A stretch of 32,000 bases of DNA from Wolbachia endosymbiont of Cimex lectularius (GTDB taxonomy: Bacteria > Pseudomonadota > Alphaproteobacteria > Rickettsiales > Anaplasmataceae): assembly GCF_000829315.1 (NCBI RefSeq), contig NZ_AP013028.1, positions 737,574-769,573 of the forward strand, read 5' to 3'. The translations under genes were made by a program, and so were the position numbers. How positions within the stretch are numbered: position 1 is the first letter of the stretch; each line of letters starts with the position of its first letter. Below are positions 2,541-3,023 of the stretch, in pieces. The notes beneath the pieces are model-generated. The model was not told the origin of the DNA. It worked only from the letters and a program-made list of their open reading frames with translations, and did no database searches.

Positions 2541-3023
2541 ACAGACAACAGTGGAAAAAAGCTACCCAATAGAAACAAAAAAACTACTTGACAAACTCCT
2601 TTAGTTCCCTTATCATAGTGTTGAAGCTATTTGTTTAACTTCCCAATCTGTACAGGTTAAAATGACAAGAGAGCTTGTATTTGGCGTACTATTGTTTAAT
2701 TTTTCGCACTATGTGCACTGCATGTCTTTTTAAAACTTCGGGTTTTTACCCATACAAGCTGAAACGCGCTTATAAGTCGTTTAAGACATCACCCAACGCC
2801 GGATTTTAAAATAGAGAGTGGAATAACTAGCTACCTCGGGGTTTTATTGTCCTTTTTCTCTGTCTGGTAAATTTCTTAAATATTATAGCTTAGACTAGTT
2901 GCGTTTAAAAGCAGCTAAATTTCAGCATTTAAGACATAAAAACGCCAATACTAAAAATAAATACCGACCAGGGCTTCTTTTGCTTTTTTCTCCATTTGGT
3001 AAGTTTCTTAAGTATTTATTACT
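2541..3023 (+). repeat. promoter-bearing intergenic repeat, copy A (two 3' modules)
   Basis: Aligns by eye with 11262-11585, 20909-21365 and 29118-29435. The shared core starts at CAATAGAAACAAAAAAACTACTTGACAA (2567). It shares extra upstream similarity with copy D. Confidence 0.85.
2588..2616 (+). promoter_or_regulatory. near-consensus sigma70 promoter inside repeat copy A
   Basis: TTGACA 2588-2593, 17-nt spacer, TATCAT 2611-2616. It points toward lepB. Confidence 0.55.

Follow-up and report, generated by a model that had tools for sequence, protein, structure and literature searches.

The 32,000-nucleotide stretch of the Wolbachia endosymbiont of Cimex lectularius analyzed here in full (contig NZ_AP013028.1, positions 737,574 to 769,573; referred to as the window) contains four copies, A to D, of an intergenic repeat. 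With a probability of roughly 0.6, these copies belong to a Wolbachia-wide, nonautonomous family of dispersed repeats resembling transposable elements of the miniature inverted-repeat type (MITEs), each copy of which is a self-contained noncoding transcription unit. In the mechanism that we propose, RNA polymerase with the housekeeping sigma factor would start at the element's own promoter and transcribe the body and the tails on the plus strand, and termination would be leaky, such that transcripts run into downstream DNA in the sense or the antisense direction. The copies would first have spread as a transposon-like element and would now be reshuffled mainly by ectopic gene conversion between conserved end blocks. 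Our best guess for the RNA is a role that is element level or cis acting rather than that of a classical structured, trans-acting small RNA (sRNA).

Repeat-family detection in the window and alignment of the copies placed all four on the plus strand, in agreement with a first-pass annotation of this DNA. Each copy contains TTGACA, a 17-nt spacer, and TATCAT (copies A, C, and D) or TATTAT (copy B) exactly where that annotation had put them, and the two spacer variants that it distinguished, ending in GTTCCCT in copies A and C and in CCAAACCCAT in copies B and D, were also recovered. Generic promoter-like matches in the window were about as frequent as expected from shuffled sequences (60 versus 51.3 expected and 53 versus 51.9 expected); the promoters of copies A to D matched 11 of 12 consensus positions and were among the five best scores in the 32 kb. 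Because the pattern recurs in homologues elsewhere, it is far beyond chance, and the promoters of the window copies are almost certainly real.

Conservation of the promoter was measured on 89 aligned copies, with about 105 promoter-bearing copies recovered in all. TTGACA was exact in 82 of the 89 and the spacer was 17 nt long in 88, while the -10 hexamer was TATCAT, TATAAT, TATTAT, or TACCAT in 71; positions 1, 2, 5, and 6 of this hexamer were kept and positions 3 and 4 varied. On the tree of copies, the parsimony changes per column were 1, 0, 4, 0, 2, and 1 in the -35 box and 1, 5, 15, 26, 4, and 6 in the -10 box, compared with approximately 21 per column in the spacer and the 6-nt discriminator, and the spacer sequence varied freely. 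The earlier claim that the hexamers and their spacing are unchanged between spacer variants thus extends to the whole family, as they were kept across all subfamilies with both spacer types. An A-rich block, AAAAACTAC, that begins 9 nt before the -35 box marks the start of family-wide conservation and by its position may act as a proximal UP-element subsite; columns further upstream were highly variable. The intervals annotated earlier for copies A and D contained a real repeat, but their left 25 to 45 nt proved to be a separate upstream module lying outside this conserved unit.

Outside the bedbug clade, 71 of 85 copies, including the window's four, had intact hexamers. In C61_2, a reduced bedbug-clade genome, the hexamers were damaged in all three copies (L041, L072, and L101). 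The Paracimex Wolbachia orthologue of copy C (L126, 2000 to 2330) is likewise decaying, with TTGATA and TATCAA in place of the hexamers. Because the hexamers decay in reduced bedbug-clade genomes, the promoter contact bases appear to be kept by selection. The same decay, the inverted repeats at the ends of some copies, and the common origin of MITEs by internal deletion of an insertion sequence (IS) would also fit a decayed IS end, in which case the promoter would once have served a transposase gene and the body would be what is left of an untranslated region (UTR), neither of them active or under selection today. We consider this highly improbable: the near-consensus hexamers with 17-nt spacing in the 71 of 85 copies extend over subfamilies that are 25% divergent and have unrelated spacers, two copies in the wMel strain yield products in 5' rapid amplification of cDNA ends (RACE), the copy-holding regions of that strain are high in transcriptome sequencing (RNA-seq), and approximately 800 kb of Wolbachia DNA yielded no IS that shared these ends or resembled the element internally.

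The transcripts of the family can be followed in wMel. Woolfit et al. 2015 (PMC4349823) tabulated, in their supplement, primers as well as 5' RACE clones for a set of 13 wMel intergenic regions (IGRs) with high transcription, which had been chosen for their high RNA-seq signal in wMelPop-CLA. The primers for IGR-392, IGR-446, IGR-1021, IGR-1035, IGR-1047, and IGR-1049 match the element, while the primers for five unrelated regions do not; for IGR-1049, the match is complete (22 of 22 bases) in 74 copies. Over their full length, the IGR-1047 and IGR-1021 RACE inserts could be aligned with the window copies, and the first transcribed base of both clones was the G of GAAGC, which lies 7 nt past the -10 box. 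The starts predicted in the first-pass annotation, at 2623, 11318, 20966, and 29201, coincide with the homologous G in these two clones. The IGR-1047 cDNA, aligned with the window copies from +1 to the linker between the tails, passes tail 1 and enters the linker, and the IGR-1021 transcript reaches the downstream coding sequence (CDS) (PMC4349823). Because the wMel transcripts read through, the tails can at most terminate leakily, which agrees with the failure to detect a terminator-like site inside copies A to D. The two wMel start coordinates had no match in the Cappable-seq supplementary tables. Identity of the element with the sRNA ncrwmel02 of the 2015 study was considered and rejected, since the sequences are unrelated.

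The repeat itself had been cataloged earlier. Wu et al. 2004 (PMC368164) listed, with coordinates in Table S1, RepeatFinder class 11 as the most abundant repeat of wMel (89 pieces), and they reported new multicopy repeat families, including family 8, that are flanked by inverted repeats and lack similarity to known elements. The IGR-1047 copy, which starts at 1,216,539, lies inside the class 11 coordinates 1,216,516 to 1,216,820, and class 11 also covers IGR-151, IG-292, and IGR-921. We take class 11 to be probably the same as "repeat family 8" (45 copies over 200 bp), on the basis of copy number and of what Table 2 reportedly lists. The first-pass statement that this is not a described element was therefore wrong in part, since class 11 and at least six of the Woolfit regions contain the repeat. 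Our literature search turned up no study in which the repeat, its promoter, and the transcripts are brought together, and neither the 2004 nor the 2015 study does so. The element is a member of a cataloged but uncharacterized family, apparently the most abundant dispersed repeat of Wolbachia.

An exact pattern search with a 20-nt core across the genome collection matched at least 120 stretches in nine Wolbachia genomes, and all of them were in Wolbachia or in metagenome-assembled genomes (MAGs) labeled "Rickettsiales." Among the latter, Nx346_bin4 and Spi319_bin9 encode proteins that, where matchable, are 93 to 98% identical to those of the window. Among the matches listed there were 8 to 27 loci per draft genome, compared with 4 copies in the 32 kb of the window, and many matches were at contig ends, as expected for a high-copy repeat that breaks assemblies. 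The presence of the family in wMel and wRi, both of supergroup A, and in the scanned strains indicates that it is old and widespread; the strain of the window itself is probably supergroup F-like. A divergent subfamily (L013 at 3690, L089 at 3213, L010 minus strand at 7575, and L091 minus strand at 4743; strand-oriented, 0-based positions) has the same promoter block and layout with a largely different body (AAGGGTATTTCTGACTCAAAACTTG...), and the family is therefore also diversified.

Conservation profiles and alignments of orthologous pairs set the boundaries of the element, which ranges in size from 300 to 540 bp. The common layout is a head of approximately 220 nt followed by one tail end (46 copies) or two (34 copies), each ending in GGTAAATTTCTTAA. 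A complete copy measures approximately 500 bp and starts with a left inverted repeat, TAGACTTCTTGCATAA(C), followed by some 30 to 50 nt of variable sequence and then by AAAAACTAC, TTGACA, 17 nt, TATCAT, 6 nt, and the predicted +1 at the G of GAAGCU. The putative transcript would continue through a body of approximately 165 nt, in which conserved blocks alternate with subfamily-specific stretches, and then through one or two tails. Each tail is approximately 90 nt long, contains a U-rich run as well as an imperfect hairpin of 9 bp, and ends in GGTAAATTTCTTAA. Where there are two tails, they lie about 130 to 145 nt apart from start to start, linker included, and some copies close with a right inverted repeat. 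In the window, copies A and C are long forms, with the second tail 132 to 143 nt after the first, and copies B and D have one tail; D is 93% identical to B over 116 nt. Copy D carries, at 29265, a 30-nt deletion between two CATGT direct repeats that removed the conserved TGCACTATGTGCA palindrome, and the same or a similar deletion is present in L086 and L001.

The unit is noncoding. As had been claimed from the four window copies, no open reading frame (ORF) is conserved across the family: conserved stops interrupt all frames on both strands, and substitutions fell about evenly on the three phases (5.98, 5.85, and 5.64 changes each), without codon periodicity. The short ORFs seen in some subfamilies are not kept throughout, since the start codon or the frame is lost elsewhere in the family. 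A repeated locus resembling type I toxin-antitoxin systems, such as E. coli LDR or Sib/Ibs, would encode a short hydrophobic peptide, and by eye some subfamilies do have short hydrophobic ORFs after AGG, as in copy A, where MTRELVFGVLLFNFSHYVHCMSF would be read from the ATG within CAGGTTAAAATG. This start codon is ACG in many copies, including copy B, and by eye the indels that distinguish subfamilies are not multiples of three. Together with the stops and the lack of periodicity, this makes such a locus extremely improbable, and a conserved ORF or type I toxin was rejected. The idea that a divergent gene begins at the U2 motif was rejected as well, because the ORFs there have just 4 to 15 codons.

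The analyses gave no convincing structure at the RNA level. Rfam detected two tRNAs alone in the window at the gathering score, and a permissive scan of copies A and B (E value up to 10) gave solely chance-level matches. Single-sequence folding was not clearly better than that of shuffled sequences (copy B, z = -0.16 on the plus strand and -1.75 on the minus strand; copy A, z = -0.42 on the plus strand), and RNAalifold predicted one 4-bp helix from 45 diverse copies. A hand-built model with five helices and extensions had a covariation score of 0.103, compared with 0.101 in shuffles, and 8 pairs with double changes, compared with 8.2 in shuffles. The candidate helix ATGTCTT/AAGACAT was contradicted by 27 A-C versus 6 G-U mismatches, and by eye the divergent subfamily lacks the complement. 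G-U exceeded A-C mismatches on the plus strand in the 5' hairpin (51 versus 6) and in TTGGCGT/ACGCCAA (72 versus 28), and this excess in two helices, the sole sign of RNA-level pairing on the transcribed strand, is a hint.

These data bear on whether the copies are, instead of mobile DNA, host-domesticated genes for trans-acting "sibling" sRNAs, in which a variable 5' region would pick the targets and the core would be a protein-binding scaffold. The strong promoter with a 5' end mapped in wMel homologues, the choice of the copy-holding wMel regions for high RNA-seq signal, the alternation of conserved and variable blocks, the G-U excess, and the existence of distinct subfamilies common to several genomes at 94 to 100% identity would all agree with such genes. 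However, the nearly missing consensus structure, the covariation at the level of shuffles, the failed helix, the lack of a terminator and of an Rfam match, and the documented read-through do not, and inverted repeats and a copy number that breaks assemblies are typical of mobile DNA. We therefore regard sibling sRNAs as rather unlikely, and the sRNA gene family that the first-pass annotation offered as a candidate was not demonstrated.

The neighboring genes were as named in that annotation, namely a signal peptidase S26 (lepB), a DnaJ-domain ORF, and RsmE, with copies A, B, and C upstream of plus-strand genes. That three of the four window copies point at such genes, and that the wMel IGR-1021 transcript enters the downstream CDS, would fit a mobile promoter cassette selected to switch on or boost the downstream gene. 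Across the family, however, the next ORF within 1 kb downstream was on the same strand in 28 cases and on the opposite strand in 37. Because copies face downstream genes no more often than by chance, the element is not a gene-driving cassette family wide, and this count largely refutes the cassette as a general rule. Additionally, a perfect 12/12 sigma-70 consensus (TTGACA, 17 nt, TATAAT) at 11602 to 11630 separates copy B from the DnaJ-domain ORF at 11635, which thus has its own promoter. A truncated wRi copy reads antisense into rnhB, and six other Wolbachia rsmE loci lack the element. Selection as a promoter cassette is therefore very unlikely, and the earlier suggestion that the element rewires the expression of neighboring genes fails at the level of the family, although single copies can affect their neighbors by read-through, as IGR-1021 does in wMel. 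GC skew gave no replication-direction signal.

The truncated wRi copy (L125, 2491 to 2585; accession MN180249.1, a "phage WO" record) comprises the promoter and about the first 60 nt of the transcript and lies between ruvA and rnhB. A link to the WO phage was rejected, since the scan of viral contigs was empty and this lone truncated copy, from a record marked "unverified WO," is surrounded by chromosomal DNA. At rsmE, the window, the close MAG Nx346_bin4, and the Paracimex strain each have the upstream copy, which in the Paracimex strain is decaying. The six other loci, which are from supergroups A, B, and E (according to the records), wCfeJ, W. massiliensis, and a Cantharis strain, lack it, and the synteny there differs.

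The ends of the element fit a transposon-like origin. In approximately 800 kb of Wolbachia DNA, the 16-nt motif TAGACTTCTTGCATAA was found almost exclusively beside the element. It precedes 16 copies, in each case in forward orientation, and follows 11 copies, in each case inverted. Both ends were present in three or four copies, 497 to 536 bp apart. Among the window copies, only copy C has a left inverted repeat of this type. Other copies have unrelated modules upstream. In the complete copies L017 and L057, both ends are flanked by TA, which may be part of the repeat itself. The search for an empty site yielded none, and a target-site duplication, perhaps of TA, is therefore at most a candidate. 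ORFs between more widely spaced inverted-repeat pairs were not transposase-like by eye, and no domain search was run on them. The inverted repeats fit the 2004 remark on new repeat families and a MITE-like origin, and small size, the lack of coding capacity, and the presence/absence difference at rsmE are MITE traits. Of the MITE-like cassette proposed at first, the mobile element thus gained support from the inverted repeats in a minority of copies, while the rewiring of genes did not.

Comparison of orthologous sites showed that the interior of the element is exchanged. In 20 orthologous-site pairs across genomes, the flanks were 84 to 96% identical over 156 to 391 nt, and the bodies were 71 to 77% identical in 14 of the pairs. 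Each copy of these 14 pairs had a twin of 84 to 100% identity (mostly 94% or more) at a nonorthologous site in the same or another genome. The pair alignments were nearly identical up to TTGACAA, diverged inside the element, and became nearly identical again from GGTAAA, and at a single orthologous site a one-tailed copy may be matched by a two-tailed one. Promoter spacer types assorted independently of the body (12 twin pairs diverged by 2.6% in the body versus 34.5% in the spacer and discriminator), with a modest effect of the genome on spacer type. Because different subfamilies occupy orthologous slots whose flanks are 90 to 96% identical, we read the exchange most simply as ectopic recombination, or gene conversion, acting from one conserved block to another. 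Strong purifying selection on the body, which parsimony counts had suggested, was withdrawn, since spacer types shuffle independently and same-subfamily orthologues track their flanks.

The exchange also allows a bolder reading, in which fixed slots bounded by AAAAACTACTTGACAA and GGTAAATTTCTTAA are refilled with different bodies and spacers and together form a strain-specific repertoire of modular noncoding RNA genes. If this quite unlikely reading were true, abundant RNAs, constant in their core and variable in their 5' part, would act in trans, in Wolbachia or in the host, and the hypervariable variable-number tandem repeat (VNTR) typing loci would be expansions of the tail module.

Several points weigh against our preferred reading of the copies as transcribed, MITE-like units reshuffled by gene conversion. 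The transcription evidence comes from wMel homologues and not from the strain of the window. The excess variability of the spacer largely reflects the shuffling of old spacer types and not neutral drift, and same-subfamily orthologues are no more conserved than their flanks (0.88 to 0.92 in the body versus 0.87 to 0.96 in the flank). Inverted repeats were present in only about one-quarter of the copies, with both ends in the three or four mentioned above. We sought an empty site upstream of rsmE and found no clean one, because synteny differs in the strains without the element. A partner that shares the ends and carries a transposase was likewise not found in the approximately 800 kb of Wolbachia DNA, and this search did not extend to whole genomes. 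Finally, gene conversion is deduced from patterns, and repeated site-specific insertion is a possible alternative.

The coordinates of the four copies and their parts are collected in Table 1.

Table 1. Window coordinates of repeat copies A to D, their parts, and the genes that flank them
Feature	Position	Strand	Description
Copy A, upstream flank module U1	2500-2578	+	Outside the family-wide conserved unit; common to copy D and about 15 others
Copy A, promoter	2579-2622	+	AAAAACTAC block 2579-2587, TTGACA 2588-2593, 17-nt spacer, TATCAT 2611-2616, 6-nt discriminator
Copy A, transcribed body	2623-2788	+	Predicted +1 at G2623 of GAAGCU, by alignment to wMel 5' RACE ends
Copy A, body blocks	2681-2687; 2705-2717; 2756-2788	+	TTGGCGT; palindrome CGCACTATGTGCA; invariant core AAGCTGAAACGCGCTTATAAGTCGTTTAAGACA; from the conservation profile
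Copy A, tail 1	2789-2879	+	Ends in GGTAAATTTCTTAA at 2866-2879
Copy A, linker	2880-2927	+	Between tails 1 and 2
Copy A, tail 2	2928-3011	+	Ends in GGTAAGTTTCTTAA at 2998-3011; spacing of tail repeat, 132 nt
Copy B, short form	11274-11573	+	AAAAACTAC, -35 box 11283-11288, -10 box TATTAT 11306-11311, predicted +1 at 11318
Copy B, body and tail		+	Body to 11482; single tail ends in GGTAAATTTCTTAA at 11560-11573
Copy C, left terminal inverted repeat	20858-20873	+	TAGATTTCTTGCATAA; same motif in the orthologous Paracimex Wolbachia copy
Copy C, long form	20909-21362	+	-35 box 20931-20936, -10 box TATCAT 20954-20959, predicted +1 at 20966
Copy C, body and tails		+	Body to 21130; tail 1 ends at 21219; linker; tail 2 ends at 21362
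Copy D, short form	29157-29423	+	-35 box 29166-29171, -10 box TATCAT 29189-29194, predicted +1 at 29201
Copy D, core and tail	29303-29335; 29410-29423	+	Core; end of tail, AGTGAATTTCTTAA
Flanking genes, copy A			GNAT acetyltransferase, signal peptidase
Flanking genes, copy B			tRNA-Pro, DnaJ-domain ORF
Flanking genes, copy C			SnoaL-like protein, RsmE
Flanking genes, copy D			ATP synthase gamma

Short upstream modules recur beside the element at many unrelated sites. Module U1 (CCACTACACAGAAAGCGGACAGACAACAGTGG...) lies at 2500 to 2566 before copy A and at 29100 to 29156 before copy D; the two are 90% identical (2543 to 2582 versus 29122 to 29161), and the U1 cluster comprises 17 copies with about 52 nt in common. 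Module U3 (GTAGCTAGCTGAATTCAGATTTTTTAGC) at 11237 to 11262 precedes copy B and, like U1, lies outside the conserved unit. On the other side of the element, modules with the palindrome CTGGATCCCAGTGTCAGCTACTTGGATGACAGG preceded by ATATTTATTACTAAAGTAGTATCC directly follow many tails in other genomes and also copy A. Within the window, such short palindromes, resembling repetitive extragenic palindromic (REP) sequences, were found at 5033 to 5067, 5151 to 5183, 14105 to 14139, and 3012 to 3075.

Two other repeats were noted in the window. Inverted arms of 330 nt that are 99% complementary lie at 759 to 1949 and 30408 to 31272, with further copies of 99 to 100% identity near the other end of the window, and they look like an IS or its remnants. 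A tandem 93-nt repeat at 18601 to 18760, inside the ORF at 17992 to 20142, is typical of ankyrin repeats.

The tail module has a hairpin of 9 + 5 + 9 nt (11509 to 11531 in the window; approximately 4100 to 4125 in L093), which is perfect in some copies (GTAGCTAGT GAATA ACTAGCTAC). Riegler et al. 2012 (PMC3287509) placed VNTR-105 between tRNA-Arg and WD1131 and described VNTR periods of 105 to 141 bp that include a 23-bp hairpin with a 9-bp stem. IGR-921, which lies between the same tRNA-Arg and WD1131, contains class 11 repeats. The tail module, with its 132- to 143-nt repeat and 23-nt hairpin, is thus similar in dimensions to VNTR-141 and VNTR-105, a comparison made by description and not by sequence. 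That the VNTR markers arise from the tail module is a lead only, and Tandem Repeats Finder detected no tandem arrays of the module in the recovered loci.

At least six, and probably eight, of the 13 highly transcribed wMel regions are one repeat with one promoter, and studies of sRNAs or start sites should therefore retain multimapping reads and treat these regions as a family. The element also provides a strong native Wolbachia promoter, with a start mapped in wMel homologues and about a hundred natural variants that show which bases are fixed and which are free, and this may be useful for engineering Wolbachia. The replacement of subfamilies means that intergenic DNA is reshuffled by recombination much faster than its flanks diverge, which bears on strain typing and may explain the origin of VNTRs. 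The element does not reveal a new kind of genetic system.

The Correia elements (CREE) of Neisseria are small, noncoding intergenic repeats with inverted repeats and promoter hexamers that are cotranscribed with their neighbors. They are approximately 100 to 155 bp long, carry promoter parts in their terminal repeats, and fire outward, and their RNA is a long hairpin cut by RNase III, whereas the Wolbachia element has a complete internal promoter in a unit of 300 to 500 bp, transcribes itself, and is not predicted to form a long hairpin. The BOX elements of Streptococcus pneumoniae are modular, with a variable number of modules, are transcribed, and in some cases affect their neighbors. However, they lack a promoter of their own, form stable structures, and have no sequence relation to the Wolbachia element. 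Putative mobile promoters, reportedly described by Matus-Garcia, Nijveen, and van Passel in 2012, are homologous promoter-bearing sequences before unrelated genes within a genome; these need placement upstream of genes, while the Wolbachia element is random in orientation and carries a transcribed body of at least 250 nt. Class 11 of wMel is homologous, present in many copies, and associated with inverted repeats, although the 2004 paper contains no promoter, transcript, modules, or subfamilies. In Woolfit et al. 2015 (PMC4349823), each region was handled as a candidate sRNA of its own and set aside either as a 5' UTR or for being too repetitive, and neither the single family behind the regions nor its promoter was recognized. 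Overall, the description that suits the element best is that of a transcribed and modular MITE-like unit that is noncoding.

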